From the IMG/VR virus record IMGVR_UViG_3300025597_000012: a stretch of DNA of 64,000 nt. One strand, written 5' to 3'. Made by a program: the position numbers and the translations under genes. Positions 13,859 through 64,000 of the stretch are shown here, piece by piece; within the stretch, counting starts at the first letter, position 1, and every line of letters starts with the position of its first letter. The notes beneath the pieces were generated by a model. That model searched no databases. It was not told the DNA's origin and was given only the letters and a program-made list of their open reading frames with translations. This stretch comes from a virus.

Positions 13859-16488
13859 TATTTATAATTTCTTAATTCTTCTATAAATTGTTCGTGTGTA
13901 AGTCCTTGTTGCGATGCAAGTTTAACTACTTGTTTTGCTTTATTATAAGCATCAGAAGGACTTAAACCATTGGTTGCTGGTATTGTAATTCTATCTACTC
14001 TATTTGTTTTATTACCATTTTCATCTAAATAATAAACTACAGCTTGTGCATAAGAGTTATTATCATTTAAATCTGATGAATTTCTATCTACTATATTTAC
14101 AAAGATAGACATATCTTTATTTCCATAAATAGGTAAATCAGAACTTCTACCGTTTATTTTTACACTATAGTTAAGTGAGTTTTCATAAGGGTCTCTTACA
14201 ATTCCCATTTTAGCAGCTTGACTATCACTAATAAAAGTTTTATATTTAGTTTTTACTGTTTTATCACCATTACCTACTTCAATATCAGATATAACAAAGT
14301 AACGTCCAGTACCATCAGATGCTTTTCCTATCATTGTAGGAGTAATCTTTTTTTCTACTGTTAAATCACTATTGCTAAGTTTAGGAGAATCTCTATAAGG
14401 TTCTGATTTTCCATTTATTAATTCTGTACTTATTAAATTAGATAATTGTCCATCACTAACAAAAGGGTCTTTATTTGAAATAGTTCTTAAACCATAAACA
14501 TCTCTTGTTTTTGTAGTTTTAAGACCTTCATTAATATTTTGTATGACTGTAGTTAAATAATCTCCAAATTCAGAATTTGCATAACCGGGAGTTACAAAAC
14601 CAAGAGCAGCAAGTCCATTTTGAATTATTGAAGCTGCTTCATTTGTGCTTTTTGAACTAAGTTCTGGATGTTTATTAATAAACTCAGTTATTTTTTCTCT
14701 AGCTGCTTCTGGAATGTTAAAATCATCATAAACTTTATTACGAACAGCTTCTACTTTTTTATTGTTAGCTTTGATAACTTCATTGTTCATTAATATCTTC
14801 TCAACATCAGCATCAAAACCATCTATTAAATCGGGAGTTACTGAACCTTTTCCTAAAGCTAAAGCTTCATAGTTCTTATATTGATTAGCAATAAATTGTA
14901 ATTGAGAACTATTTAAATTTGCTAAATGACCATATTGCTGAACTACAGCGTCATGTTTATAAACAGGTTTTCCATCAGGGCCTGTTGTCGTTTCAAACAT
15001 AGCTAAGTCATCTGCTTGTAATCCGGGTTGACCATTAAAATCTTCTATAAACTTCTGATTCTTAAGAAGTCTGGCTGTTCCTTTACCTATAGTTGTTACT
15101 TCTGTAACACCAACTTCAGGGTGTTCACCAACTAGCTTGTTTATAATAGATGCGGATATTTGGTCATTTTCTAGCTTTAATGCTGTATTTTCATCTGTAA
15201 TTTTAGCTAATGTTGGAATAGATGCTTCTTCTGTATTAGGGTCATCTGTTACTAAGTGGTTATCTCCTGTTGGTAAATCAAGTAATTCAATTTCTCCTGT
15301 TATAGGATTAACATGTCTATACTTACCTGCAGCAGCTAACTTAACTTGAAGCTCTCCCTCTTTAATATCAAGCTCTCTATTTTTTAATTCTACTGTTTTA
15401 GCAAAATGTCTATCAGCTTGTTCCATCTTATCAGTGAACATCTTAGCTTGGTCAAATTGTATAGTTCTGTCTGTTCTATTAACTGAGAATCTATTACCTA
15501 ATCCTCTAAAATAATCATCTGCATATAGATTGTAATAGACTTCATCAGGGTTAGATTGAAGTGCTTTACCAAAATTCTGTGAGAATTGTGACTTAGCCGA
15601 GGCAATAGAAGATACTACTTTAGCTTGTTCATCTGCTAATTTATTGTAATTTTTTCTAGCTTGGGGGTCATTAACTGCTTGAGCAGCAAGGTCTTCGTAT
15701 TCTCTTTGAAGTCTTACAGCATCATCAACTTTAGTTTGATATTGTGCTTCTCCTTTTTGCATAAGAGCCTTAGGGTCAGCTCCTCTGTATAAAAACCAAG
15801 CATCTCTTTTCATTTGTTCTCTTTCCTGAGGAAGCATATTATCAGCAGCAATAGCCATTATTCTGTCTGGACTAATTCTTTCACCTGTTTCCTTAGTTAT
15901 GTAATATCCATTTTGCATGATATTAGTAGTAAGGTCAGATTTAATTTTATCAAATAACTTATAGTGAGCATCACGATAAGCTACATAAGGAGTAGCCTCA
16001 GATGGGCCATTATAACTACTTCCAATAGTTTTATCATTCATGTAAGCATTAACACTTTGCATGTCATATGCTTCATTTACTTGGCTATAAAGTTTTGAAA
16101 GTTTAGGGTCTGTTTTAAATTTTTCATAAGAACTCATTAAATTTCTAACTTTCTTTGTTGAAGCAAGTGCAGAAAGAACTTTATTATCAGAATAAATATC
16201 AGAACCTAAACCTTCTACTTGTGCTGTTACACTTTGGTCAGATAAGTCAATTCCACCATATGTATTTAAAGAACTAACAAGATTATTAATCTTACCGTTA
16301 AGATAGTCTCTATCTTCTGTCTTTAATACATCTAAGCTACCAAGTTGGTCTATATCAGATTGTATCTTTTGGCCTGCCTTATCAAACTGTTCTTGCTTGA
16401 TACTCAACACTTTAGAGAAAAGGTTGAGGTCAAGTGGTAGCTCGTAAGGGCTAGACTTAAAAGGTGTACTTAAATAACTTATCGCCAT
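13858..16488 (-). CDS. Large structural (tail) protein, 876 aa
   Basis: Long ORF in the tail gene block; 1-nt start/stop coupling with the neighbouring gene. Confidence 0.7.
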   Translation of the reverse strand: MAISYLSTPFKSSPYELPLDLNLFSKVLSIKQEQFDKAGQKIQSDIDQLGSLDVLKTEDRDYLNGKINNLVSSLNTYGGIDLSDQSVTAQVEGLGSDIYSDNKVLSALASTKKVRNLMSSYEKFKTDPKLSKLYSQVNEAYDMQSVNAYMNDKTIGSSYNGPSEATPYVAYRDAHYKLFDKIKSDLTTNIMQNGYYITKETGERISPDRIMAIAADNMLPQEREQMKRDAWFLYRGADPKALMQKGEAQYQTKVDDAVRLQREYEDLAAQAVNDPQARKNYNKLADEQAKVVSSIASAKSQFSQNFGKALQSNPDEVYYNLYADDYFRGLGNRFSVNRTDRTIQFDQAKMFTDKMEQADRHFAKTVELKNRELDIKEGELQVKLAAAGKYRHVNPITGEIELLDLPTGDNHLVTDDPNTEEASIPTLAKITDENTALKLENDQISASIINKLVGEHPEVGVTEVTTIGKGTARLLKNQKFIEDFNGQPGLQADDLAMFETTTGPDGKPVYKHDAVVQQYGHLANLNSSQLQFIANQYKNYEALALGKGSVTPDLIDGFDADVEKILMNNEVIKANNKKVEAVRNKVYDDFNIPEAAREKITEFINKHPELSSKSTNEAASIIQNGLAALGFVTPGYANSEFGDYLTTVIQNINEGLKTTKTRDVYGLRTISNKDPFVSDGQLSNLISTELINGKSEPYRDSPKLSNSDLTVEKKITPTMIGKASDGTGRYFVISDIEVGNGDKTVKTKYKTFISDSQAAKMGIVRDPYENSLNYSVKINGRSSDLPIYGNKDMSIFVNIVDRNSSDLNDNNSYAQAVVYYLDENGNKTNRVDRITIPATNGLSPSDAYNKAKQVVKLASQQGLTHEQFIEELRNYK

Positions 16489-48407: not shown

Positions 48408-48481
48408 GCACGGGCTGTGGGCATCGAACCCATCTCCATGCAAGGTTTTGGAGACCTGCTGCTTCCTAAAGCTAGCCCGGA
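48408..48481 (-). tRNA. tRNA-Trp (CCA), irregular T-arm/acceptor junction
   Basis: Anticodon loop CTCCAAA and T-loop TTCGATG found. Supported by the single TGG codon in the upstream leader peptide. Acceptor pairing imperfect. Confidence 0.45.
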
Positions 48482-48485
48482 TAAG

Positions 48486-48558
48486 TACACTCTAAAAGAT
48501 TCGAACTTTTATTTCTTGGTTCGTAGCCAAGTGTCCTCATCCATTGGACGAAGAGTGC
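48486..48558 (-). tRNA. tRNA-Arg (ACG)
   Basis: Manual cloverleaf: GCACTCT / GTCC..GGAC / CTTGG-CTACGAA-CCAAG / AAAAG-TTCGAAT-CTTTT. Confidence 0.8.
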
Positions 48559-48563
48559 AAAAG

Positions 48564-48635
48564 TGTGAATGACCAGACTCGAACTGGTACTTAGTAGCTC
48601 CACAAACTACCGCTCTACCATTAAGCTACATCCAC
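48564..48635 (-). tRNA. tRNA-His (GTG)
   Basis: Anticodon loop TTGTGGA; extra 5' G; T-arm ACCAG-TTCGAGT-CTGGT. Confidence 0.8.
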
Positions 48636-48643
48636 CATATGAG

Positions 48644-48714
48644 ATGCCTCTAAAGGACTCGAACCTGTAACTCTTGACCCAAAATCAAGCGTGTTGCCAT
48701 TACACTAAGAGGCA
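48644..48714 (-). tRNA. tRNA-Gln (TTG)
   Basis: Anticodon arm CTTGA-TTTTGGG-TCAAG; acceptor TGCCTCT/AGAGGCA. Confidence 0.8.
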
Positions 48715-48719
48715 AAAAG

Positions 48720-48791
48720 CGTGGAAGGTGGATTCCGAGACCACAACACCTTGCTCTTCAGGCAAGTGCTCTACCTTTGAGCTACATCCAC
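48720..48791 (-). tRNA. tRNA-Phe (GAA)
   Basis: Anticodon loop CTGAAGA; D-arm GCTC-AAAGGTA-GAGC. Confidence 0.75.
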
Positions 48792-48798
48792 ATAATTG

Positions 48799-48872
48799 AG
48801 CCTGAGAAGGGAATCGAACCCTCAACCGCTAGTTTACAAAACTAGTGCTCTACCGATTGAGCCACTGCAGGC
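48799..48872 (-). tRNA. tRNA-Thr (TGT)
   Basis: Anticodon arm CTAGT-TTTGTAA-ACTAG; acceptor stem has a bulge or mismatch. Confidence 0.65.
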
Positions 48873-48876
48873 ATAG

Positions 48877-48948
48877 TCTAGTTGACAGGGTTCGAACCTG
48901 CCTAGTCTTGCTCCCAAAGCAAGTGCCTAACCAATCGGCCACAACTAG
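48877..48948 (-). tRNA. tRNA-Pro (TGG)
   Basis: Anticodon arm CTTGC-TTTGGGA-GCAAG; acceptor CTAGTTG/CAACTAG. Confidence 0.8.
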
Positions 48949-48949
48949 A

Positions 48950-48978
48950 AATAAAAAACCCCGCTTTATAGGCGGGGC
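48950..48978 (-). terminator. Intrinsic terminator (CCCCGCC-UAUAAA-GCGGGG then U6AUUU) abutting the 5' end of tRNA-Pro; acts as the attenuator terminator of tRNA array A
   Basis: GC hairpin followed by a T-run on the minus strand. Confidence 0.7.
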
Positions 48979-49003
48979 TTTAAGTATAATAATTGAGTTT
49001 CAA

Positions 49004-49078
49004 TTAGTTACACGTAGTGCATCCGCCACCAGATATTGTGGGCGTAAACCAAAAGCGTGTATGTTGAAACTGTTTCAT
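49004..49078 (-). CDS. Leader peptide MKQFQHTRFWFTPTISGGGCTTCN (24 aa) of tRNA array A
   Basis: ATG about 57 nt downstream of the predicted TSS; stop 27 nt upstream of the terminator hairpin. Codons CAG TTT CAA CAT ACA CGC TTT TGG TTT ACG CCC ACA are read by exactly the seven downstream tRNAs (Gln, Phe, His, Thr, Arg, Trp, Pro). Confidence 0.6.
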   Translation of the reverse strand: MKQFQHTRFWFTPTISGGGCTTCN

Positions 49079-49204: not shown

Positions 49205-49741
49205 TTAACTTCCTAACTCATTGTCTAACAGACGTAAAGCTATTTTATCTGTACCAAAGGCAGCTAATCTATCCATAAGATTTTGAGTCTTTTCATGCTC
49301 TTCTATTTGTTCTTGTAAATATTTCATACCTAAAGTATAGAGCATAAAATCTGCTTCTTTTAAAGCATTAGCTGTCAATTCTTTACATTGCTTAGTTATA
49401 TCAATTTCATGTTGATAAGACTGTTTAATTATATCCGGTAAACCTGCAAATGTTTGTTTAGGTGAGTCTAGTTTTGGAGTTTCAGGTTGAACACCCATAG
49501 CTAAGAGATACTCTCTAGACCATTCTGCGTGTTTTAGCTCTTCCTCTGAATATTTTCTCCAAAGCTTTGCTGAACCTAGATAACCATTATTATTTAACCA
49601 CAGACTCATGGCTAAATATAGACGAGAAGAAAGCTCCTCTTGTTGGATTCTATTATTTAAAAATTGAACACATTTATTAGATAATAGTTCATTTTTACCT
49701 GTAAGGGAAATAGAATCTGTAGTTTTAAAATTAAGTTCCAT
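49205..49741 (-). CDS. ftn: Ferritin (non-haem, ferroxidase-type)
   Basis: Spacing of conserved E/H residues and overall motif pattern align with bacterial FtnA (…EELSSRLYLAMSLW…EEELKHAEW…QHEIDIT…EQIEEHEK…). Confidence 0.75.
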   Translation of the reverse strand: MELNFKTTDSISLTGKNELLSNKCVQFLNNRIQQEELSSRLYLAMSLWLNNNGYLGSAKLWRKYSEEELKHAEWSREYLLAMGVQPETPKLDSPKQTFAGLPDIIKQSYQHEIDITKQCKELTANALKEADFMLYTLGMKYLQEQIEEHEKTQNLMDRLAAFGTDKIALRLLDNELGS

Positions 49742-49785: not shown

Positions 49786-49790
49786 ATTTG

Positions 49791-49875
49791 TGAGAGTGGC
49801 TGGAGTCGAACCAGCACCCTTGCGGGACTACAGTTTTACAGACTGCTCCACCTAACCGATAGGTAGCTCACTCTC
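49791..49875 (-). tRNA. tRNA-Tyr (GTA), type II
   Basis: Anticodon arm GCAGT-CTGTAAA-ACTGT; variable arm TCCC-GCAA-GGGT. Confidence 0.8.
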
Positions 49876-49881
49876 AAATAG

Positions 49882-49967
49882 CGGAAACGAAAGGACTCGA
49901 ACCTTCAACCCAAATTAACGAGTAACGGTTTAGCAAACCGCTGCAGTACCATTATGCTTACGCTTCC
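49882..49967 (-). tRNA. tRNA-Ser (GCT), type II
   Basis: Anticodon loop TTGCTAA; long variable arm; acceptor GGAAGCG/CGTTTCC. Confidence 0.7.
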
Positions 49968-49972
49968 AATAG

Positions 49973-50056
49973 CGGTAGAGACAGGAATCGAACCTGTACG
50001 GCTATTACACCTTCATGGTTTTCAAGACCAATAAGCCCTCTCATTTGCGCTCTACC
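49973..50056 (-). tRNA. tRNA-Ser (TGA), type II
   Basis: Anticodon loop CTTGAAA; 84 nt; acceptor GGTAGAG/CTCTACC. Confidence 0.7.
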
Positions 50057-50062
50057 AATATG

Positions 50063-50148
50063 TACTCCTGACTGGACTCGAACCAGCACGTCCATTTCTG
50101 GACAAGGGATTTTAAGTCCCTCGTGTCTACCAATTCCACCACAGGAGC
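50063..50148 (-). tRNA. tRNA-Leu (TAA), type II
   Basis: D-arm GTG-GAATTGGTAGA-CAC; anticodon arm AGGGA-CTTAAAA-TCCCT. Confidence 0.8.
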
Positions 50149-50153
50149 ATATG

Positions 50154-50237
50154 TAGCCTCGGAGAGACTCGAACTCTCACGTCCTTACGGACACTAGCTC
50201 CTAAGGCTAGCGCGTCTACCAATTCCGCCACAAGGCC
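50154..50237 (-). tRNA. tRNA-Leu (TAG), type II
   Basis: D-arm GCG-GAATTGGTAGA-CGC; anticodon arm CTAGC-CTTAGGA-GCTAG. Confidence 0.8.
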
Positions 50238-50238
50238 A

Positions 50239-50269
50239 ATAAAAAACCCCGACTATTGCTCGCCGGGGT
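50239..50269 (-). terminator. Intrinsic terminator (7-bp GC stem then U6AUU) 2 nt upstream of tRNA-Leu(TAG); attenuator terminator of array B
   Basis: Hairpin plus T-run on the minus strand. Confidence 0.7.
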
Positions 50270-50300
50270 TTGAGGTTAAAGACCGTAGTCTAAAACAAGT

Positions 50301-50369
50301 TTACATAGTATTCCCAGCTCGATTTTTACTCGATAAACTGAGGGAATAATATGTGTTGTTTGTCTTCAT
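50301..50369 (-). CDS. Leader peptide MKTNNTYYSLSLSSKNRAGNTM (22 aa) of tRNA array B
   Basis: ATG 11 nt from the predicted TSS. Eight consecutive codons TAT TAT TCC CTC AGT TTA TCG AGT cover all five downstream tRNAs: Tyr-GTA, Ser-TGA, Leu-TAG, Ser-GCT, Leu-TAA. Confidence 0.6.
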   Translation of the reverse strand: MKTNNTYYSLSLSSKNRAGNTM

Positions 50370-53243: not shown

Positions 53244-53255
53244 TGGTTTTATTTG

Positions 53256-53331
53256 TGGAATCTATGGGCATCGAACCCATCTGGTATTCTGCTTGCAAGG
53301 CAGACGACCACTCCAAGCAGTCCCAGACCCC
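53256..53331 (-). tRNA. tRNA-Ala (TGC)
   Basis: Anticodon arm TCTGC-CTTGCAA-GCAGA; acceptor GGGGTCT/AGATTCC with G3:U70; unusual G8. Confidence 0.65.
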
Positions 53332-53335
53332 AAAT

Positions 53336-53456
53336 GCGGGGGACTACGGCCCCCTAAAGATGTCTTATTAGGTTTCATCTCTGTCCCGGATTACGCTAGC
53401 GAGCTACCGGGGAAACCACGCTACATACTTTCGTAGAGGTTATGCGGGTTACACTG
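53336..53456 (-). ncRNA. Unresolved ~120-nt structured spacer between tRNA-Ala and tRNA-Ile; hairpin-rich but no canonical cloverleaf found
   Basis: GGGGG-CCGTAGT-CCCCC and TAGCG…CGCTA stems. Confidence 0.2.
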
Positions 53457-53529
53457 TGCTCACGCTAAGACTCGAACTTAGACTCTCTCGCGTATCAGGC
53501 GAGAGCTTTAACCATTAAGCTACATGAGC
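53457..53529 (-). tRNA. tRNA-Ile (GAT)
   Basis: Anticodon arm CTCGC-CTGATAC-GCGAG; T-arm CTAAG-TTCGAGT-CTTAG. Confidence 0.8.
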
Positions 53530-53581
53530 TGGAGAGGGACAGGTTATTTATACCTTCAAAGGACTCCCTCAGACCTCTTCG

Positions 53582-53654
53582 TACTCTCAAAGGGATTCGA
53601 ACCCTAAATTGCCTGTGTATAAGACAGGAGTTTTCACCGTTAAACTATGAGAGC
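53582..53654 (-). tRNA. tRNA-Ile (TAT) (AUA-decoding, or a modified-Met type)
   Basis: Anticodon arm CCTGT-CTTATAC-ACAGG; acceptor GCTCTCA/TGAGAGT. Confidence 0.55.
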
Positions 53655-53659
53655 AAGTA

Positions 53660-53740
53660 AAGAGAGTGGGATTAGATTTCCGGGGATTGACCCAACCTGT
53701 GTCCTAATCTTATTTATCCTTGTACGGAGGCACACTCTCT
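53660..53740 (-). ncRNA. tRNA-like element (~80 nt) with 7-bp terminal pairing AGAGAGT/ACTCTCT but no canonical T-loop
   Basis: Pairing of the two ends is seen; no cloverleaf could be built. Confidence 0.25.
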
Positions 53741-53801
53741 TTGAATGGTCGGGCGGATTGCTTCTTTCAGCCTCAGACATTAATTACAATGTTGCCCGAT
53801 G

Positions 53802-53874
53802 CGGTCTATCACGGATTCGAACCGAGACTACCGCATAGACAGTGCGGCGTGTTCAACCATTACACTAATAGACC
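53802..53874 (-). tRNA. tRNA-Asp (GTC)
   Basis: Anticodon arm CCGCA-CTGTCTA-TGCGG; acceptor GGTCTAT/ATAGACC; overlaps the 3' end of the upstream ORF by ~15 nt. Confidence 0.8.
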
Positions 53875-54504
53875 ATAAACTTTATCCATGTTTGTTTTTC
53901 CGTTGCCATGAATAATCAACGGCTGAGTACCAGTTTTTTTATTAATCAGGATTCCATGTCTGTACTCAAAGTCATCTTCTGATTCAAAAGCTACAGATTG
54001 AAATAAATCACAGTTGGTATCCAACTTCATGTTATATTTATCTCTGTGCTTCAGATAAATTTCTGCTAAGTTAACTTGGTCATTATCACTATGTTTTATT
54101 GGATAATCCTCAAACATCTTGATAAATAAATCTACATTAACAAAGCATGCACCACCATTCAGATATTTCCAATCACTTTTTACTTTAGGATATTTTTCTG
54201 CCCAATCTGAATAAGGCCAGCATCCTTTTTCTGCGTTAAATATAATAGAATCAATATCATCTATTCTATCTATTGCTTGTTGCATTGTACCCAAAACTAT
54301 GATGTCATAAGTGTCTAGGATAAACAAGTGAGTACAATCTGTTTGCTTTGCATAGTTATAAGCGTTAACCATTTTACTACCATAAGCTTTATAGGTATCA
54401 GTCAGAATATCATAATTCCAATCAAACCTATCAAGTGAATCTTTAAACTGTTTAAACCCTTCGTGGTTTAAGTTGGTTGCTGTTCCTATTACGTTTACTT
54501 TCAT
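53860..54504 (-). CDS. Hypothetical protein, possible glycosyltransferase-like
   Basis: ORF; weak resemblance only. Confidence 0.35.
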   Translation of the reverse strand: MKVNVIGTATNLNHEGFKQFKDSLDRFDWNYDILTDTYKAYGSKMVNAYNYAKQTDCTHLFILDTYDIIVLGTMQQAIDRIDDIDSIIFNAEKGCWPYSDWAEKYPKVKSDWKYLNGGACFVNVDLFIKMFEDYPIKHSDNDQVNLAEIYLKHRDKYNMKLDTNCDLFQSVAFESEDDFEYRHGILINKKTGTQPLIIHGNGKTNMDKVYGLLV

Positions 54505-55289
54505 TTGAATGGATTATAATAAATAGATATTGTATTATTCTTATAACCCTGAACGGTTTCGTGATAGGTTTTCCATTGTTCAGAAGCATGGTTTTCTTTC
54601 CATTTCTGGTATGGTGTTCCTCCTGTATCTATGTGTTCTATCTCTATATGAGGTAAGAATACACTTTTAAACCCTGATAGTCTTGCTCTTATAGACATAA
54701 GGACATCATCAAATCCGTATAAACTAGGTTGGTATAAATAACCTATTTTATCAAGTAAAGCTGCTGAGTGCATAACACAAGTACCCATCACATGATTTAC
54801 TTGTTCTACTACTACCCATTTTTCACCGGGCTGGTGTTGAAGCATTAGTAATTCTGACTTATAAAAATCAGTTCTATTTGGTGATTCCCAACAATCTTTT
54901 CTTTTCAAGCCCACCTGTCCAATAGTATTGTCACGGCGAAAAACTTCTTCCATCTGTTCTATCCAACCTGATTGATGTATTACTACATCATCATCAATTT
55001 TAACACAATTCTCTCCGGGTTTTCTTTCTTTCCATGCTAAATTAATAGCTTCAGCAGTTCCTAGATTTTTATCATTCCAGATAACTTTATCAATTACAGA
55101 AAAAATTCCATTTGATTCAGAAAAATCTTCTATTATTTCTTTTGTTCTAGTAGTATAGGAATTTACAGAAAGTATTAATCTGTGTGAATCCCAGTCAACT
55201 GTTTTTTCTAAAGAATCTAATGTTTTATAAAGATATGTATCTTTATCATTATCTTCAGTACAATAAACAGCCATTGCTATTAAAGCCAT
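54501..55289 (-). CDS. Glycosyltransferase family 2-like; start moved to the internal Met at 55289 because the track start (55331) lies inside tRNA-Glu
   Basis: …NDKNLGTAEAINLAWKE…CVKIDDDVVI… (DxD) and YGFDDVLMSIRARLSGFK. Confidence 0.55.
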   Translation of the reverse strand: MALIAMAVYCTEDNDKDTYLYKTLDSLEKTVDWDSHRLILSVNSYTTRTKEIIEDFSESNGIFSVIDKVIWNDKNLGTAEAINLAWKERKPGENCVKIDDDVVIHQSGWIEQMEEVFRRDNTIGQVGLKRKDCWESPNRTDFYKSELLMLQHQPGEKWVVVEQVNHVMGTCVMHSAALLDKIGYLYQPSLYGFDDVLMSIRARLSGFKSVFLPHIEIEHIDTGGTPYQKWKENHASEQWKTYHETVQGYKNNTISIYYNPFK

Positions 55290-55304
55290 TGGTTTTATTT
55301 TTAG

Positions 55305-55379
55305 TATTCTGGAAGGGACTCGAACCCTCACTGACCACAGTGAAAGTGTGGTGACTTATTCCAATTTGTCAACCAGAAC
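55305..55379 (-). tRNA. tRNA-Glu (TTC)
   Basis: Anticodon arm CCACA-CTTTCAC-TGTGG; acceptor GTTCTGG/CCAGAAT. Confidence 0.75.
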
Positions 55380-55459
55380 ATTTGCAGTTTAGTCGGCCTC
55401 TACTATACCTAGGCCGCAGAGAGTATAGACTCGTATTCCATCTACTGCAAAAAGGAATT

Positions 55460-55530
55460 GAGCGAGTAGTGGGAGTCAAACCCACGCCTTAACCTTGGAA
55501 GGGTCATATGCTATCGTAACACTTCACTCG
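55460..55530 (-). tRNA. tRNA-Gly (TCC)
   Basis: Anticodon arm TGACC-CTTCCAA-GGTTA; T-arm GTGGG-TTTGACT-CCCAC; the 5' end overlaps the HNH stop. Confidence 0.6.
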
Positions 55531-55942
55531 CTAATGCTTCTTTATAATGTAAATCTCTATGACAATTAGCACATAAAACTTTACATTTATTTATTTCTTC
55601 TTGTAATAGTTTTTTAGAACATTTTGTTACAAGTTGTGATACTTCTGAATCTTTTTCATTTGGATTTTTATGATGAAAATCTAAAACCCAATATCTACTA
55701 TCTCCACATGATTCACAAGATAAAGTACTTTTGTATTCAGAAAACCATTTTCTAAAGTCTTGTTTATACTTTACTGCTTTTTGAATATACTTTTCTTTAT
55801 TTTTTTCGTAATGCTTTTTTCTATATTCTTTTTGACAAGCTTTACAATTACTTTGATAAAGTAAATTTTTTCTATCTTTTCTTGTAGCAAACTCCGTTAA
55901 AGGAAGTTCTTTTTTACAAATTGTACATTTTTTAATTTTCAT
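55511..55942 (-). CDS. HNH homing endonuclease (leaderless; start at MKIKKCTICKK)
   Basis: CESCGDS…DFHHKNP…LCANCHRDLH; the predicted promoter places the TSS on the ATG, so the N-terminal extension in the ORF track is rejected. Confidence 0.7.
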   Translation of the reverse strand: MKIKKCTICKKELPLTEFATRKDRKNLLYQSNCKACQKEYRKKHYEKNKEKYIQKAVKYKQDFRKWFSEYKSTLSCESCGDSRYWVLDFHHKNPNEKDSEVSQLVTKCSKKLLQEEINKCKVLCANCHRDLHYKEALASEVLR

Positions 55943-55947
55943 ATATG

Positions 55948-55979
55948 TAAATATACGAAAAATAATTGATACTTCCAAA
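55948..55979 (-). promoter_or_regulatory. Promoter TTTG-N20-TATATTTA for the HNH endonuclease
   Basis: Extended consensus copy. Confidence 0.5.
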
Positions 55980-56001
55980 TTTTATTTTATTTGGAAGGAT
56001 G

Positions 56002-56073
56002 TTGCGTAGGCTGGATTCGAACCAGCGACCTAATGGTTATGAGCCATCCGAGCTACCTCTGCTCTACCACGCA
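56002..56073 (-). tRNA. tRNA-Met (CAT), elongator-like
   Basis: Anticodon arm GATGG-CTCATAA-CCATT; T-arm GCTGG-TTCGAAT-CCAGC. Confidence 0.8.
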
Positions 56074-56183
56074 ATTTATCCCCGGACTAGTGCGCCTTCC
56101 TCCGGGGGTGTTATTGCTTATCTTCTTCGTCAATAACTAAACCCTTTTGGGTCGGCCAACGGATACTATCCGCAGGGGGGGGG

Positions 56184-56396
56184 CTATCTTAATATCTTTA
56201 AACCGCTGGTAGCAGTCCAAAGAACATAATTGTTTTTCTTTACTTCACCCATTACTATTTTCTTTTCATAATTAGTAACTCGTGAAGTAGGAAGGGTAAC
56301 CAACCAGTGAATGAATTTTTCTCGTTCACCTTTGTATTTTTTAATACTGGCTATCCTACGGTATTCCTTACCGTCTTTTATGACTGTATCATTCAT
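56184..56396 (-). CDS. Small basic hypothetical protein
   Basis: ORF; its TAG stop directly abuts a G9 homopolymer. Confidence 0.35.
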   Translation of the reverse strand: MNDTVIKDGKEYRRIASIKKYKGEREKFIHWLVTLPTSRVTNYEKKIVMGEVKKNNYVLWTATSGLKILR

Positions 56397-56397
56397 G

Positions 56398-56472
56398 CGG
56401 GACAGGATGGACTCGAACCAACGACCTTAGAGTTAACAGCTCTCTGCTCTCGACCAACTGAGCTACAGTCCC
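56398..56472 (-). tRNA. tRNA-Asn (GTT)
   Basis: Anticodon loop CTGTTAA; D-arm GCTC..GAGC. Confidence 0.7.
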
Positions 56473-56513
56473 CTTTTGTATTTTTAACTCCACGCAGAAT
56501 ACTAACTGACCTG

Positions 56514-56587
56514 AAGCCCTGAAAGGAGTCGAACCTTCATCTAATAGTTTAGAAAACTATGACATTCATCCATTATGCTACAGGGCC
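56514..56587 (-). tRNA. tRNA-Arg (TCT)
   Basis: Anticodon arm ATAGT-TTTCTAA-ACTAT; acceptor GGCCCTG/CAGGGCT. Confidence 0.8.
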
Positions 56588-56590
56588 ATG

Positions 56591-56665
56591 TACATCTGGA
56601 ATGAGTCGAACATTCGGTCTCCGTCTTGTAAGGGCGGTGCTTTCAACCAACTAAGCTACAGATGC
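56591..56665 (-). tRNA. tRNA-Val (TAC)
   Basis: Anticodon loop CTTACAA; acceptor GCATCTG/CAGATGT. Confidence 0.75.
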
Positions 56666-56720
56666 AAATATAATACTTTATTTAAAGCTTACCAAATAAA
56701 GTATGTTAAAGTTTTGTTAG

Positions 56721-56791
56721 AGGACAAGATAGGAATCGAACCTACGCTGGAGGTGTTGCAGACCTCTGCCTTACCGCTTGGCTACTTGTCC
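56721..56791 (-). tRNA. tRNA-Cys (GCA)
   Basis: Anticodon arm GAGGT-CTGCAAC-ACCTC; acceptor GGACAAG/CTTGTCC. Confidence 0.8.
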
Positions 56792-56794
56792 ATG

Positions 56795-56868
56795 TGCTAC
56801 CGAAGGGACTCGAACCCATAACCTCCTGATTAAAAGTCAGAAGCTCTACACTATTGAGCTACGATAGC
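56795..56868 (-). tRNA. tRNA-Lys (TTT)
   Basis: Anticodon loop CTTTTAA; acceptor GCTATCG/CGGTAGC. Confidence 0.75.
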
Positions 56869-56871
56869 AAA

Positions 56872-56898
56872 TAAAAAACCCTCCTTTAAGGGGAGGGC
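56872..56898 (-). terminator. Intrinsic terminator (CCCUCC…GGAGGG then U6AUUU) 4 nt upstream of tRNA-Lys; attenuator terminator of array D
   Basis: Hairpin plus T-run. Confidence 0.7.
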
Positions 56899-56920
56899 TT
56901 CAGTAATATTCGTGGTTAAA

Positions 56921-57013
56921 TTAAACCAGTTCTATATCAGACATAGCTCTCCTGATGATGGTATCTCTACCCACCTCTTTACAAATCATATTTATGGCTA
57001 TGTTCTTTCTCAT
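56921..57013 (-). CDS. Leader peptide MRKNIAINMICKEVGRDTIIRRAMSDIELV (30 aa) of tRNA array D
   Basis: ATG 11 nt from the predicted TSS. Codons AGA AAG AAC…AAT…TGT AAA…GTG…AGA…AGG AGA…GTT are read by the downstream Arg-TCT, Lys-TTT, Asn-GTT, Cys-GCA and Val-TAC tRNAs (13 of 29 codons). Three ATA codons also match tRNA-Ile(TAT). Confidence 0.55.
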   Translation of the reverse strand: MRKNIAINMICKEVGRDTIIRRAMSDIELV

Positions 57014-57030
57014 TTTAAATTTAAGTTATG

Positions 57031-57062
57031 CAAACTTACGACAAATATTTGGATTTTCCAAA
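57031..57062 (-). promoter_or_regulatory. Promoter TTTG-N20-TAAGTTTG for the array D leader
   Basis: Extended consensus copy. Confidence 0.55.
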
Positions 57063-57080: not shown

Positions 57081-57281
57081 TTAAATCTTTTGTGAATATC
57101 TTTTCCAGCCTGTAACTTTATTGATAGCGTCTACTAGTTTATTGTAATCTTTACGCCAGTTTTTATAAGCTTTGGAGCGTTTATCTGATGGCTCCTTAGC
57201 GGCCTGTTCAGCTAAAAGTTCATCAGCATGACCTACGTTTACAATAATTATTTCTTTATCGTCAATCATTACTCTTTCCAT
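57081..57281 (-). CDS. Small hypothetical protein
   Basis: ORF coupled to its upstream gene. Confidence 0.4.
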   Translation of the reverse strand: MERVMIDDKEIIIVNVGHADELLAEQAAKEPSDKRSKAYKNWRKDYNKLVDAINKVTGWKRYSQKI

Positions 57282-57607: not shown

Positions 57608-57620
57608 GTTTTTTATTTTG

Positions 57621-57736
57621 CAGTATGGGAAGGATTCGAACCTTCATAGTTTAATGTATCGTTCACTAGGAATACTTAATACTTATAAACTGCCACCGAG
57701 ACTAGGTGGTGCGTCTGCCAGTTCCGCCACCGTACT
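57621..57736 (-). tRNA. Atypical 116-nt tRNA-like gene: Leu-like D-arm (TG-GCG-GAACTGGCAGA-CGC), canonical T-arm (GAAGG-TTCGAAT-CCTTC), paired acceptor, ~46-nt hairpin insertion in the variable region, non-canonical anticodon loop UAGUCUC
   Basis: Own promoter whose predicted TSS coincides with the 5' end. Confidence 0.4.
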
Positions 57737-57743
57737 ATAAGTA

Positions 57744-57774
57744 CAAAGATAGTGAAAAATTTTGAGATTACAAA
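57744..57774 (-). promoter_or_regulatory. Promoter TTTG-N19-TATCTTTG driving the atypical tRNA-like gene
   Basis: Predicted TSS falls at the tRNA-like 5' end (57736-57737). Confidence 0.5.
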
Positions 57775-59884: not shown

Positions 59885-60433
59885 AAAGGTAGTGTTTTTC
59901 TCTCACTTAACCAAATTTAATTTGTTAAAATAGGCCCCCGGTATTTAACATTTGAAAAAGATACCCCCGTACTTACCTAAAGGGGAAATAAGGGGAGGCT
60001 CTCACTCTTAGGAACCCGGTTATAACTCCTCCCCCGCGTTCCCTTAGTCCGTGACCTATCCCCCTGCTTAAAGCCGTAACGAATTGAGAACCAGCGACTT
60101 ACAACTATTTTCAAAGTTTTTGCCCTGAATAGTTGGAAACGGTCAGCAGGATGACCTACTTTTGTCTGGTAATCCTACCACACAGCCCAAAGGGGCAAAG
60201 CAAAGTAAGGCAAGCCGCAAGGCCATCCCTGAACTGTTCGTGGCGTGATTACCCTGCATATAAACTATAGGCAAACTTTGCCTACAGTCCAAAGTATGGA
60301 ATGTCGGAATAACTGATGTTTATTGGTGTCTATGTAGCATCCAACTCAGGTGTTAGTCTACATAGGATTAAACAGTAGGCCAGTTGACCAGTCGGGGTAT
60401 TTTTATACCTAACTGCAAACCATTGGTTAATCC

Positions 60434-60457
60434 AAAAAACCCGTCCTTTACGCGGGC
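60434..60457 (-). terminator. Possible minus-strand terminator inside the GC-rich region
   Basis: CCCGC-GUAAAGGA-CGGG then U6. Confidence 0.3.
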
Positions 60458-61397
60458 TTGCTAAAAACAGGCTCTTAAATTGGACTCCCTAAGGGGATAT
60501 GCTTATACGATTGTGTCTGCTCATGCAGGTACATCGGTCAAGGGCAAAGTGTTACCGTCATCAGAATACAGGAACAAACCTGTATACGGTAGGGGTATAT
60601 CCCAACGCAGCCGGCTTGGTACGGACTTGGCAAGTCCAAACCATGACAATACTCGGTCAAACAACCCTGCTGTCCTAAATGGGCATCATATAGGCAGGGA
60701 CTGCGAAGCAACGTAGTGGACAACTCCCTGCTTAGGGTAGGGGTATATAGTGTCCGGTGCGTAGTGTAAAGGTGGCTATTGTTACCTGAAAGCGTAACGA
60801 AAGGAATAAACTGCAAAGTTTTTGAGGCTCGTCATGTACTAACGGGCTATTTTGCGTGTAGAATAATATTCAACCACGTTTCTGAATAGTACAAAGTAAG
60901 GTAAGCTACCTGCGAAAACGGTCTAAACGGGCTAATTGCACCCGCAAGGATTAGACTAAACTCACAATTATTTCTATAATTGAGTATAAAGCGGAAGCAC
61001 TCTTGTCATTTAGTGACAGGACTAATCTGCAAGTAAGGTATGAGGGTGGCCGCAAGGTTGCACCCTCATGTCGGGGTCAAATCCGGCGGAAGGCTCATAA
61101 CTTTCCGCCTTACCACATTTGGACACGGACGGATAACACAATAGGGGATGGGGCACGTCAAAGCACTACTAATGTAGGCGAGCACGGCACTCATTCCCTT
61201 GTTGTGTTAAAGTTGTGTTACATTTTACGTTATGTAAAGCCAGCAGTGTGCCGCGAGGTTCTTTTGCTGGCTCAATGTACTGAAAGAGAACCGTTTGCGG
61301 GTTGTTCCGTATGGGTCGGTATGTCCATATCTTTTGCTCGTAAATTGTTGATTTTCAATGTTTCAAAGGCTCTCATTAGTTATTACTGGGTCTTTAT

Positions 61398-61436
61398 GGG
61401 GGGTGTGTCGGTACTGTCCTGCACACCCCTTTTCTA
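61398..61436 (+). terminator. Plus-strand intrinsic terminator (GGGGUGUG…CACACCCC then UUUUC)
   Basis: 8-bp GC-rich stem plus T-run ending the ORF-poor region. Confidence 0.55.
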
Positions 61437-61474
61437 TTAGGATTATCGTGCCTCTTATGGCATAATGATACAAT

Positions 61475-61669
61475 ATGGCTGAACTTACTCTTGCACAGTT
61501 GGTTGAAAGGTGTTATGCCTCTAATACCGAACTGAAACCTCACGTTAAAAGTACGTGGCGTAGTCCTGAACCGTGTGAATTCGGGTGGCATATTGAAGAG
61601 GCTACCTGTAATGACGGCAGCGTATGGGAGTGGATACCGGAAGACCATATCTGGGAACTTAAAAGATAA
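61475..61669 (+). CDS. Small hypothetical protein (GC-rich rightward operon)
   Basis: First of five tightly spaced plus-strand ORFs with ~48% GC codon usage. Confidence 0.4.
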   Translation: MAELTLAQLVERCYASNTELKPHVKSTWRSPEPCEFGWHIEEATCNDGSVWEWIPEDHIWELKR

Positions 61670-61671
61670 GT

Positions 61672-61920
61672 ATGCCTTTACCTAATGACCTTCACCCTAT
61701 CCTTAGGACTTGTTGGCTTGAGGATATTGTGCCTGTTTGTAAAAAAGTGTGGCAAAGTGAAGGTACACAAAGATGGCACAATAAGACAGATGCCAAAGAT
61801 GTAATATCTAAGGCATTACAAGCCATGTATCCATATAAAATTAGCAATCTGGAGATAAACTTTGTTTACTTTCAGGCTATGCAGTATGTGGATGACCTTG
61901 AGAAATCATTAAATTCCTAA
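61672..61920 (+). CDS. Small hypothetical protein
   Basis: Operon member. Confidence 0.4.
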   Translation: MPLPNDLHPILRTCWLEDIVPVCKKVWQSEGTQRWHNKTDAKDVISKALQAMYPYKISNLEINFVYFQAMQYVDDLEKSLNS

Positions 61921-61987
61921 TATGCACAAAGCAATTCGGATTTTTATCCATGCCATGTTTGGCATTTTCTTCTAAACCAATACATCT

Positions 61988-62257
61988 ATGCGTATCCAAT
62001 TTGGATGCACTCAAACTGTCTTGGATAATACAGGACGGCTTGTGTGCTATCGTGGCTCTTTACCTGTTCATAAGGGTTTGGCACATAGTAATCCTGCTAT
62101 TAAATTGATTAAGGGCAAGGCATTCTATATGCCTGAGAGTCAGGACTTTGAAGAGTTATGGAGATTATTGGATGATATGAGGATAGTTAACCACAAGTTT
62201 AAGATAAAAGAACTGAACCAGCGCATTAAACAAATTAAAAAGAAATCAACGTGGTAA
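61988..62257 (+). CDS. Small hypothetical protein with basic C-terminus
   Basis: Operon member. Confidence 0.4.
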   Translation: MRIQFGCTQTVLDNTGRLVCYRGSLPVHKGLAHSNPAIKLIKGKAFYMPESQDFEELWRLLDDMRIVNHKFKIKELNQRIKQIKKKSTW

Positions 62258-62340
62258 ACACAATCATTCACATCTGTGAGGCGGGGACTATTCATGTCCT
62301 TACCGCTTCGGGGCTTGCTCGTAAATAATAGGCTCAATAT

Positions 62341-62730
62341 ATGCACGTTAGAATCCATTGGAAAGTGGATAGTTCGGGCGTGGCTAAAAAGGATGAAAAA
62401 TCTTTATCCTTCAAGCACAGGCTCGGAACTAAACCGCTATCCTTGAATCAAAGCGTGGAGTTTACGTTAGACGGCAAGATTAACAAGACGTGGAAACGTA
62501 ACTTCACTAAGAAAATCAACGCACAGTTCCGGCGCAATTCTACTGCTGTCTTATTCATTGACGGTAAACGGATTGAGCACGGGACAGGACTGCGTGATGC
62601 AGGTTCTTTTGCCAACGAGATTGCCAACATTTTGTTGGAACTCCGGCATACCCACAAAGAAACTTTTGATGCAGTTTCCAACCGTAAAGGTAAGGAGATT
62701 GCAGGGAGTATAGCTAACGCACTGGCTTAG
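62341..62730 (+). CDS. Hypothetical basic protein, 129 aa
   Basis: Operon member. Confidence 0.45.
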   Translation: MHVRIHWKVDSSGVAKKDEKSLSFKHRLGTKPLSLNQSVEFTLDGKINKTWKRNFTKKINAQFRRNSTAVLFIDGKRIEHGTGLRDAGSFANEIANILLELRHTHKETFDAVSNRKGKEIAGSIANALA

Positions 62731-62763
62731 TAGTGCTATTTTAAACGCATAAAACAAAAACAA

Positions 62764-63351
62764 ATGCGTACAACTAACAAAGTAAGCGTGAGATTCTCAC
62801 AGGACTTGTCTTATGTCGGGCCTTCCCGCAAAGGCAAGGACGGCGTAGTCAAACCGGGCAGGCTCATTACTTTCGGTAATGAGATGGTATTCTCGGATGA
62901 GACTGAAGAGGAAGTAACAGCCGAAAACGTAGGTTCGTGGGCTGTGGCTAAAGTCGGCCACGCCTTGAAACTGATGCGTTTGCAGGGCAAAACCGGTTTC
63001 AAAATCAGCAAGCCTATCGTGATGGAAGTAACCATCAACGGTAAGCGTGTTGAATTGAGTTACTGGAAAATGTCACTGAACCTTGACCGTATTGAGCGTA
63101 TCATGGGTAAATCACCCGAATTGCTCGCGTATGCCTTTACCGGCTACAAACACAACGTGTCAAAGTCAACTGCAAAAGACGGTTTCGCGTTCCTCGCCAA
63201 TGCTGCAAGTGGTAAAACACTGCTGGCTCCCGCTGTTACCAACAACCCGCTGCTGCCCGCTGTCAACACAGAAGGACTGGAAGAACTGGAAGTTGAGGAA
63301 ACTCAACCCGTAGTTACTGACAACCTGCCTGTGGATGAAGAAGCAAAGTAA
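62764..63351 (+). CDS. Hypothetical protein, 195 aa, acidic C-terminal tail
   Basis: Operon member; followed by a terminator-like hairpin. Confidence 0.5.
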   Translation: MRTTNKVSVRFSQDLSYVGPSRKGKDGVVKPGRLITFGNEMVFSDETEEEVTAENVGSWAVAKVGHALKLMRLQGKTGFKISKPIVMEVTINGKRVELSYWKMSLNLDRIERIMGKSPELLAYAFTGYKHNVSKSTAKDGFAFLANAASGKTLLAPAVTNNPLLPAVNTEGLEELEVEETQPVVTDNLPVDEEAK

Positions 63352-63613
63352 GCGGTACCGGCCGGAACGAATACCGTGCCTATTGTAAGGTAGGTTAGCC
63401 CTTAGTAGGTGCTAAGTATATCGTTCCCGCTGCCTGTATGTTTATCCGGAAACTAAAACACCGGAAACGATCAAAAATCCTTGTACCTCCCGTAATTATG
63501 CGGCAGGTAGGGTGTGCTGTAGCTGCCAACTGTAATCAGTAAGACGGCAAGCATTATGTATAATCAGCAGGAGGGTGGTAGCAAAAATGGGTAGCCAACC
63601 CATGATACCTAAA

Positions 63614-63651
63614 CAGTCGTTAAGTGTGCCTGTCCCGACTGCTGATTTTTT
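63614..63651 (+). terminator. Weak terminator candidate (CAGUCG…CGACUG then U6)
   Basis: Stem with a long loop plus T-run. Confidence 0.3.
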
Positions 63652-64000
63652 AACAAAAGATTATTCTTATTTAGTCTTATATCTTAGGCAACGACTATAA
63701 CAAGTAATAAGGAATCAGTCACCTCAGATAATATCTCCTATGATATAGACTAATGAGTATATAAAGAATACCTCGCGTCTGTAATCTATCCACTAACTGT
63801 CGTAAAGTGGGCACCTGTATGTTAGCCTGACGAATGGCATACAGAAAGCTACCTATGTGTGCTCGTTGGCACATCAATGTTAAGGGGACAGGGTTATGGA
63901 CGCGAGGTATTTTTTTTGCTATGGGTGTTACTCGTAGTGGTTCAACTCCACTAAGCAAAGCATGAAGCACATCCTCGCCTTTCACTACAAGGCAAATGAA

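Follow-up and report, generated by a model that had tools for sequence, protein, structure and literature searches.

A probable multivalent ribosome-mediated attenuator ahead of a tRNA operon in a Crassvirales-like phage

The 64,000-nucleotide (nt) stretch of viral DNA considered here (IMG/VR virus record IMGVR_UViG_3300025597_000012; the whole stretch is referred to as the window) contains a short open reading frame (ORF), leader D, that is located between a Bacteroidota-type promoter and an intrinsic terminator adjoining an array of transfer RNA (tRNA) genes. Taking its sequence and the comparison with related phages together, leader D is probably a multivalent ribosome-mediated transcription attenuator of a phage tRNA operon. 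An earlier reading of this DNA, made without database searches (the sequence-only reading), had put forward a ribosome-dependent attenuator whose codons correspond to the downstream tRNAs, as one of several such units, and this proposal survived every computational test applied to it: matching by reading frame, comparison with a null set of small ORFs, controls across arrays, co-variation of leaders and arrays in six other phages, co-variation of terminators and antiterminators, and folding as a function of ribosome position. What sequence and comparison support directly is the anatomy of the unit, the correspondence between codons and tRNAs, the co-variation of this correspondence across phages, and the alternative RNA pairings.

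Anatomy of leader D and its codon-tRNA match

The promoter, the 30-codon ORF, the intrinsic terminator adjoining tRNA-Lys, and the five tRNA genes (Lys-TTT, Cys-GCA, Val-TAC, Arg-TCT, and Asn-GTT) described in the sequence-only reading are all present. All elements of leader D and all tRNA genes of the window described here lie on the minus strand:

57031-57062, minus strand: Bacteroidota-type promoter; -33 element TTTG at 57059-57062, N20 spacer, -7 element TAAGTTTG at 57031-57038
56921-57013, minus strand: leader ORF D, 30 codons plus stop, MRKNIAINMICKEVGRDTIIRRAMSDIELV; ATG at 57013, end of TAA at 56921
56963-57010, minus strand: regulatory codons 2-17, RKNIAINMICKEVGRD; 16/16 read by downstream tRNAs, 12/12 decoding classes
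56945-56952, minus strand: putative antiterminator 5' strand GGAGAGCU, codons 21-23; pairs with the terminator 5' arm AGCCCUCC
56869-56901, minus strand: intrinsic terminator; 5' arm 56892-56901, loop 56885-56891, 3' arm 56875-56884
56397-56868, minus strand: proximal tRNAs; Lys-TTT 56794-56868, Cys-GCA 56720-56791, Val-TAC 56590-56665, Arg-TCT 56513-56587, Asn-GTT 56397-56472
53255-56073, minus strand: distal tRNAs without a leader of their own; Met-CAT 56001-56073, Gly-TCC 55460-55531, Glu-TTC 55304-55379, Asp-GTC 53801-53874, Ile-TAT 53581-53654, Ile-GAT 53456-53529, Ala-TGC 53255-53331

Promoters with a -33 TTTG and a -7 TAnnTTTG element, about 19-21 nt apart, represent the consensus of the Bacteroidota primary sigma factor, and the promoter of leader D (TTTG-N20-TAAGTTTG) conforms to it. 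Sequences of the type TTTG-N18-22-TAnnTTTG occur 14 times in the window, against 3.25 expected, a number that was reached in 0/100 shuffles; the motif is also present ahead of the sister leaders A and B and of the leaders found in the related phages L014, L018, L019, L015, L016, and phi17:2. The ATG of the short ORF follows the -7 box of the promoter at a distance of 17 nt; the transcription start site and the 11-nt untranslated leader given in the sequence-only reading are predicted positions. A Shine-Dalgarno sequence is absent from these phage leaders. The leader ORFs are not called as genes on the near-identical metagenomic contigs listed for this phage, and an exact-protein look-up returned only 99.98%-identical copies of the same phage, in which the leader is identical and which therefore add no variation.

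The stop codon of leader D is separated by 19 nt from the terminator hairpin (GAAGCCCUCC-CCUUAAA-GGAGGGUUUU). The U-tract UUUUUUAUUU (56869-56878) overlaps the last four positions of the stem, and its terminus at 56869 adjoins the start of tRNA-Lys at 56868. A hairpin with a predicted free energy (dG) of -14.7 kcal/mol (z=-3.5) stands before the first gene of the array.

ARAGORN detected 21 tRNA genes in the window, all of them on the minus strand at 48.4-56.9 kilobases. Relaxed ARAGORN settings and Rfam add Trp-CCA (48408-48480) and Gly-TCC (55460-55531), and a probable Ser-TGA at 49974-50056, uncalled by ARAGORN, is indicated by a sub-threshold Rfam match to tRNA-Sec together with a UGA anticodon read in the sequence. 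With these additions, the total amounts to 24 tRNAs for all 20 amino acids. The combination of promoter, short ORF, and terminator was found at three places only, ahead of the arrays A, B, and D. Neither a leader nor a terminator of their own was found for the distal tRNA groups in the window, and a scan of the minus strand from 56868 to ~52797 yielded no terminator of comparable strength and just two weak consensus matches (56153-56140 and 54026-54012). In the relative L018, the same 12 tRNAs (Lys to Ala) are present in one array with a single ORF between Arg and Asn. Because they are near-contiguous there, this comparison shows, at the level of gene order, that the window's array D and the neighboring array E are one ancestral array that was later split by insertions; the inserted ORFs that now divide the distal tRNAs are a 70-amino-acid ORF, an HNH endonuclease gene, and two glycosyltransferase genes. 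The set of tRNA genes assigned to leader D therefore includes the five proximal ones named in the sequence-only reading but extends to 12.

To score the match, we counted the decoding classes Arg-AGR, Ile-ATA, and Ile-ATY separately and used the phage's own codon usage as background. When leader D is compared with the 12 downstream leaderless tRNAs (Lys, Cys, Val, Arg-TCT, Asn, Met, Gly, Glu, Asp, Ile-TAT, Ile-GAT, and Ala), 25/29 of its codons match, and codons 2-17, which hold one to three codons per downstream tRNA, do so without exception (16/16; background 0.58). The probability of 16/16 is 1.8e-4, and the exact probability of 16/16 combined with a representation of 12/12 classes is 1.5e-7. 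Leader D is the sole ORF with a score of 16/16 among the 379 ATG ORFs of 20-60 codons in the window, the runners-up reaching 14. The signal depends on the frame, since the other two reading frames of leader D each match at 8/15 codons, and on the array, since 0/16 of codons 2-17 fall into the codon sets of array A or array B. The codon enrichment known from leader-peptide attenuators is thus found here in a frame-specific and array-specific form that co-varies across phages.

Several details of the sequence-only reading had to be revised in the light of these counts. It had reported 13 of 29 codons for the five nearest tRNAs; the codons it listed sum to 11, and 11/29 against a background of 0.25 is not significant (p=0.085). 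It had also regarded ATA as rare and had used this codon to connect array D with array E. However, 408/1031 Ile codons of this phage are ATA, which is hence a common codon; the connection exists, but its reason is the shared ancestral array under a single leader and not the rarity of ATA. Its remark that the Arg codons fit the TCT and not the ACG isoacceptor is in line with the leaders of relatives, in which the Arg codon class agrees with the Arg isoacceptor.

Two sister leaders are present in the window:

49004-49078, minus strand: leader A, MKQFQHTRFWFTPTISGGGCTTCN (MKQFQHTRFWFTPT...); terminator 48949-48985; upstream of Pro Thr Phe Gln His Arg-ACG Trp (48408-48948)
50301-50369, minus strand: leader B, MKTNNTYYSLSLSSKNRAGNTM (MKTNNTYYSLSLSS...); terminator ~50238-50272; upstream of Leu-TAG Leu-TAA Ser-TGA Ser-GCT Tyr (49790-50237)

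Leader A matches its array at 12/13 codons (p=1.7e-7; background 0.22) with 7/7 classes represented, and leader B at 8/13 codons (p=9e-4; background 0.19) with 5/5 classes. The codon sets of these two leaders are small, unusual, and mutually exclusive, and each leader has zero to few matches to other arrays. Leader A gave a sub-threshold match to the Rfam family Trp_leader (RF00513; 33.9 bits vs a gathering score of 41).

Array B (49790-50237, minus strand) consists of exactly the class II tRNAs, i.e., those with a long variable arm (Leu x2, Ser x2, and Tyr). This grouping is kept in L018, L019, and L015 and is partial in Lbo-JY46, where Leu x2 and Ser-TGA only were detected. A ferritin/Dps-like gene with its own promoter is located between arrays A and B (49205-49741, minus strand); Bacteroides phage crAss001 likewise carries a DpsA-like gene inside its tRNA array (L171:4551-5000).

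Leaders and arrays in related phages

The terminase of the window is Crassvirales-like, with 'Leptolyngbya phage Lbo-JY46' as its best match (49% identity), followed by Cellulophaga phages (31%). The same unit of promoter, ORF, terminator, and tRNAs was recovered as 20 leaders in 7 phages with TerL identities from 63% down to 31%. Besides the window, units are present in Lbo-JY46 (L014), in the uncultured IMG/VR phages L015 (with its extension L158), L016, L018, and L019, in the more distant, uncultured L022, and in the cultured Cellulophaga phage phi17:2 (L170, NC_021798.1), which has three leaders.

The leaders of the D type (MYLIVDNMICGNGRAKE... in L158, MNSRTVIDNIRNAEGCKK... in L018, MINSIDIRNIDIVCAEGVNK... 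in Lbo-JY46, and MSLLVIIAGRGAERIVK... in L019) resemble leader D in composition and not in sequence, as a comparison of RKNIAINMICKEVGRD with YLIVDNMICGNGRAKE of a close relative illustrates. When all 20 leaders are considered, 226/285 regulatory codons (79%) match the array that follows, compared to 29-31% out of frame. For the first 17 leaders, we found 191/241 codons matching their own array versus 78 expected with arrays permuted (p<=1e-5); the decoding classes of the array were represented in 122/132 cases and non-array classes in 40/276, and the mismatching codons were concentrated at codons 2-5. The Arg codon class agrees with the Arg isoacceptor in 11/11 Arg-containing leaders of this set (12 codons); in phi17:2, leader 1 uses CGT with Arg-ACG, and leader 2 uses AGA with Arg-TCT.

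Rearranged arrays are particularly informative. In L019, Asn and Asp tRNAs are found in the Pro/Thr/Phe/Gln/His/Trp array, whose leader reads MINNWHNTFNNFTPDQ.. / MINNWHNTFNNFTPDQQD.. and lacks Arg; the Lys array of this phage has gained Arg-ACG, and its leader is devoid of Asn and Asp and contains both AGA and CGC. In L022, a leader with ..HSYRPQQLLQ.. precedes the array Pro Gln His Arg-ACG Leu Tyr Glu, and a second one with MKRNNWFNNAAAFTTTDCGKG.. precedes Ala Gly Asp Asn Trp Thr Arg-TCT Phe Cys. The three leaders of phi17:2 contain QRLHLQELEQP (array Pro Glu Gln His Leu Leu Arg-ACG), TKTGITVIDKTKGARA (array Ala Lys Ile Gly Met Asp Thr Val Arg-TCT Met), and NYCTYNNSNWSFSY (array Tyr Ser Ser Asn Trp Phe). 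In our view, this agreement between the composition of a leader and the content of its array is the decisive evidence: the rearrangements are independent, and each is tracked by its leader.

The system is not universal among phages because crAss001 has no leader-terminator unit at its tRNA array and no such unit stands directly ahead of the tRNAs in more distant TerL relatives, whose tRNAs are isolated and number one to three; in one of these relatives, L028, a leader-like ORF and a terminator lie ~90 nt further upstream of the tRNA. Other searches contributed little. The ferritin-like protein (49205-49741) recovered 12 IMG/VR loci, none with tRNAs, the search with the 108-amino-acid ORF yielded nothing, and the glycosyltransferase recovered one locus without tRNAs. 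For a degenerate DNA pattern of leader A, the matches listed included chance matches; a pattern of leader B recovered the L018 contig alone. The only helpful locus from a metagenome scan with TerL was the same as L015, and the genome scan contributed none.

A number of observations on the relatives can be added. Leader 2 of phi17:2 corresponds to the annotated gp077 'hypothetical protein' (L170 28443-28562). The phi17:2 gene gp078 (L170 30384-30485) is inside the tRNA-Ser(TGA) gene, and its annotation is probably spurious; the Cys codon in leader 3 suggests that the 'tRNA-OTHER' at L170:31044-31117 is tRNA-Cys. Since the leader ATG is only 4-7 nt past the -7 box in several relatives (L018 7595-7635, L019 5704-5745, and L014 ~14200-14240), their leader mRNAs may be leaderless or nearly so, while the window leaders have 17-61 nt instead. 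L014 (PP438436.1, 'Leptolyngbya phage Lbo-JY46') is filed as a cyanobacterial phage; its leaders are preceded by Bacteroidota-type promoters (TTTG-N19-21-TAnnTTTG), its terminase is Crassvirales-like, and its stated host may be wrong.

The RNA switch, its proposed operation, and alternative explanations

All leaders possess a strong intrinsic terminator that adjoins the first tRNA, with the stop codon 13-30 nt ahead of it, and within every leader ORF there is a stretch that can pair with the 5' arm of the terminator of the same leader. The duplexes formed by these native pairs have a mean dG of -12.0 kcal/mol, compared to -8.5 when arms are swapped; 11/18 native pairs rank first (permutation p=5e-5). 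In leader D, the candidate antiterminator is formed by GGAGAGCU (56945-56952) and AGCCCUCC (56892-56899) with a dG of -9.6. Between leader D and its closest relative, the D-type leader of L158, the terminator stem changes from CCCUCC/GGAGGG to CCCUGCU/AGCAGGG and the antiterminator from GGAG.. to GCAGGG at the aligned position; read from this alignment, the L158 antiterminator change (GCAGGG:CCCUGC) is compensatory.

We modeled the effect of ribosome position with a footprint of -15 to +12 relative to the A-site, allowed only RNA 3' of the ribosome to fold, and cut the transcript before the 3' arm of the terminator. In this model, the terminator 5' arm of leader D is sequestered with P=0.85 as long as the A-site is on codons 2-17, with 0.35 at codon 18, and with ~0.03 from codon 19 onward. 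The boundary falls directly after the last matching codon in leader D, in its L158 counterpart (…RAKE|L), and in the phi17:2 leaders. In silico, terminator and antiterminator are hence predicted to be mutually exclusive and dependent on ribosome position, through a helix that is modest in leader D.

These features suggest the following course of events. Transcription would start at the TTTG/TAAGTTTG promoter, and a ribosome would translate the 30-codon ORF as RNA polymerase moves toward the terminator ahead of tRNA-Lys. When all cognate aminoacyl-tRNAs are plentiful, the ribosome would cover or pass GGAGAGCU (codons 21-23) and stop 19-22 nt short of the terminator; the hairpin would form, and the tRNA genes would stay off. 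When any cognate tRNA is scarce, the ribosome would lag in codons 2-17, GGAGAGCU would pair with AGCCCUCC, and the terminator would be blocked, so that the polymerase could read into Lys-Cys-Val-Arg-Asn and, in the ancestral arrangement, onward through Met, Gly, Glu, Asp, Ile, Ile, and Ala. The new tRNAs would relieve the lag, and because the products are the very tRNAs being tested, this would amount to a demand-driven negative feedback on phage tRNA supply. Candidate triggers are host tRNA decay, tRNA-cleaving defenses, a mismatch in codon usage, and amino-acid starvation. Together with leaders A and B, the 24 tRNAs for 20 amino acids would be split into three sensing channels. A further-reaching and tentative idea, which we consider quite possible without calling it probable, is that closed-loop, demand-driven control extends to the entire set of tRNAs (24 tRNAs, 20 amino acids) in a lineage of Bacteroidota phages. 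The three leaders would then form a distributed assay of decoding capacity inside the cell, each as an OR-gate over 5-12 tRNAs, and would induce exactly the lacking tRNAs. The phage could answer host tRNA decay or tRNA-cleaving anti-phage defenses only when needed, and this would represent the first case of tRNA genes that are regulated by translational sensing of their own function.

A number of points weigh against leader D as an attenuator of this kind. Most tRNAs are represented by a single codon, so that the expected sensitivity to each of them is low compared to the codon runs of hisL or pheL. The antiterminator of leader D is modest (7 base pairs with one A·C mismatch, -9.6 vs -14.7 kcal/mol for the terminator), and in the swapped-arm comparison leader D ranks 4th/18 and the D-type leaders of Lbo-JY46 and L018 14th and 15th. 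Because the helix is modest and leader D is 4th/18 in this control, we rate the RNA evidence as moderate for leader D alone; for the whole family, it is strong. The footprint parameters of the ribosome are assumed values. Leader D RNA free of ribosomes is predicted to form the antiterminator (P 0.77), i.e., to permit read-through, and unlike trp, leader D has no clear anti-antiterminator, which leaves its default state uncertain. The phages compared are related, and the pooled p-values ignore this kinship and overstate independence; moreover, Tyr and AGY codons persist in leader B of Lbo-JY46, a phage in which neither a Tyr nor a Ser-GCT tRNA was detected. In the window itself, four ORFs and promoter-like motifs (56665-56696 and ~55950-55990) interrupt the array and may have freed the distal tRNAs from control by leader D. 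Finally, we infer translation of the ORF, the coupling of transcription and translation, termination and read-through, and the physiological trigger from the sequence.

The same architecture could also sense global translation status or amino-acid starvation and not specific tRNAs. Slow ribosomes, host shut-off, or a shortage of ribosomes would then be the trigger, the leader would time tRNA expression in the infection cycle, and the codon match would merely make it decode like an average phage gene. The codon set of leader D covers 58% of normal usage, so that this leader alone is partly average-looking, and the predicted formation of its antiterminator in the absence of ribosomes would fit a switch that is turned on under poor translation. 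However, leaders A and B use small exclusive codon sets (background 0.22 and 0.19), and leader composition follows relocated tRNAs and the class of the Arg isoacceptor, for which a generic speed sensor has no need. We therefore consider this explanation unlikely.

Complete units of promoter, ORF, and terminator could, in principle, stand alone as independent genes for a micropeptide or a small RNA, with the tRNAs expressed constitutively through leaky read-through or from other promoters; the annotation of phi17:2 gp077 as a hypothetical protein and the promoter-like motif inside the array would be in keeping with this. Yet the peptides share composition and not sequence even in close relatives, and their composition tracks array content; the terminator always adjoins the first tRNA, antiterminator and terminator co-vary, and leader D has no promoter between its terminator and the first tRNA. 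This makes an independent gene very unlikely, and a conserved micropeptide can be dismissed, since only composition is kept and sequences are not.

Leader D might instead be an ORF that arose by chance in AT-rich spacer DNA, next to a hairpin that simply terminates the genes upstream (66- and 108-amino-acid ORFs). The non-significant five-tRNA count would agree with this, and the terminator could also end the upstream operon. However, the upstream ORF ends at 57081, and a full promoter separates it from the leader; this rules out a terminator that belongs solely to the upstream ORFs; the combined codon and class match is unique among the 379 ORFs and has 20 parallel frame-specific cases. This possibility, to which we attach next to no weight, is already strongly disfavored.

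An equally far-fetched alternative is a protein- or RNA-binding, riboswitch-like element, e.g., a T-box-like direct tRNA sensor, that controls the terminator next to an incidental ORF; T-boxes and other riboswitches do use the same terminator/antiterminator output, but no Rfam family, T-box included, matches the leader at the gathering threshold or at E<=1, the leaders share no conserved primary sequence beyond the composition of their ORFs, and the frame-specific codon signal would have no role. The lack of an Rfam match rules out a T-box or another known RNA family: T-box (RF00230) has no match anywhere in the window, and the Rfam leader families have none on 56869-57062, even at E<=1.

Relation to known systems and further features of the tRNA region

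In its layout, leader D resembles the ilv, thr, trpL, hisL, leuL, and pheL attenuators, where a translated short ORF that is rich in the relevant codons follows the promoter and a terminator stands ahead of the first structural gene. As in the enterobacterial systems, the antiterminator strand is located just 3' of the regulatory codons, and the stop codon is placed such that an unstalled ribosome would prevent antitermination. The ilvGMEDA leader (Leu/Val/Ile codons) and the thr leader (Thr/Ile), like the phage leaders, read several amino acids through one leader. In contrast, the phage leaders would control tRNA genes and not biosynthetic enzymes, and their output would replenish the sensed species; they read up to 12 tRNAs, mostly through one codon each; and they are found in phages of Bacteroidota, with Bacteroidota promoters, no Shine-Dalgarno sequence, and no sequence homology to their enterobacterial counterparts. 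The genes downstream of classical leader peptides serve amino-acid biosynthesis or encode aminoacyl-tRNA synthetases, whereas those downstream of leader D are tRNA genes, and it is in this difference that the novelty lies.

Closest in logic is pheST of E. coli with its pheM leader, where leader-peptide attenuation controls a component of the translation machinery in response to the level of charged tRNA-Phe. It differs in that it is chromosomal, senses one amino acid only, and controls an aminoacyl-tRNA synthetase and not a tRNA gene. T-box elements likewise choose between terminator and antiterminator according to tRNA status and use a codon-like specificity element; they bind uncharged tRNA without a ribosome, however, and control synthetase, biosynthesis, and transporter genes, mostly in Firmicutes.

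The leaderless polycysteine small-ORF attenuators of mycobacteria are reported to be short ORFs with little or no untranslated leader, as several of the phage leaders may be, that sense the supply of one amino acid and control the genes downstream; they differ in being restricted to cysteine and to protein-coding operons and in using another mechanism (bioRxiv 10.1101/834739). The phage crAss001 also has a large tRNA array near its terminase module and is a Crassvirales-type phage of Bacteroidota, but its promoter is located 26 nt ahead of the first tRNA, with neither an ORF nor a terminator in between. A full-text search of the literature, whose coverage was incomplete, found no account of tRNA genes under leader-peptide attenuation.

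If correct, leader D would extend leader-peptide attenuation to a non-coding operon that feeds back on its sensor, with a valency of up to 12 tRNAs per leader. It has long been asked for what purpose phages keep tRNA genes and at which point they draw on them. Recent reports show that phage tRNAs can rescue infection from tRNA-cleaving defenses (PMC10264068, PMC11464382, PMC11555353). A leader that measures the decoding of exactly those codons that its downstream tRNAs serve would indicate that tRNA supply is treated as a regulated quantity and would name the sensed variable. Leader composition would also predict operon membership and the identity of unrecognized tRNAs, e.g., from the Cys codon in leader 3 of phi17:2. 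Because this Cellulophaga phage has three such leaders, the proposal is testable in culture.

Several further features of the region deserve mention. One full promoter motif, TTTGGTAAGC...TATATTTG (56665-56696, minus strand), lies between tRNA-Cys and tRNA-Val and is not present in L158, the closest relative. The final G of this motif doubles as the first base of tRNA-Val, and a transcript initiated there would start inside this tRNA. The HNH endonuclease ORF (55511-55978, minus strand) is inserted after tRNA-Met and overlaps the following tRNA-Gly (55460-55531) with its 3' end. Since HNH genes occur at differing array positions in L158, Lbo-JY46, L022, and crAss001, tRNA arrays appear to be hotspots for homing endonucleases. 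Spacers of 100-150 nt that are rich in G+C and seemingly structured precede Met, Ile-TAT, and Ala (56074-56200, 53655-53800, and 53332-53455, minus strand); no ORF and no Rfam match was found in them.

Upstream of leader D, a conserved long tRNA-like RNA is encoded at 57620-57740 (minus strand) with its own TTTG/TAnnTTTG promoter (57744-57774, minus strand). It has an acceptor stem AGTACGG/CCATACT, a Leu-like D arm, a stem-loop CCACC-TAGTCTC-GGTGG, an insert of ~50 nt, and a normal T arm; it is not recognized by Rfam, and ARAGORN detects it with forced introns only. Its homologue in L158 (reverse strand, ~1143-1297, between tRNA-Asn and tRNA-Met) exhibits compensatory changes in the stems and an insert of ~90 nt. 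Lastly, the G+C content is 44% at 60000-64000, compared to ~32% elsewhere in the window, with few long ORFs at 60000-61700; independent assemblies (L159-L162, 99.98% identical) also place the 60000-64000 region on the contig of this phage.

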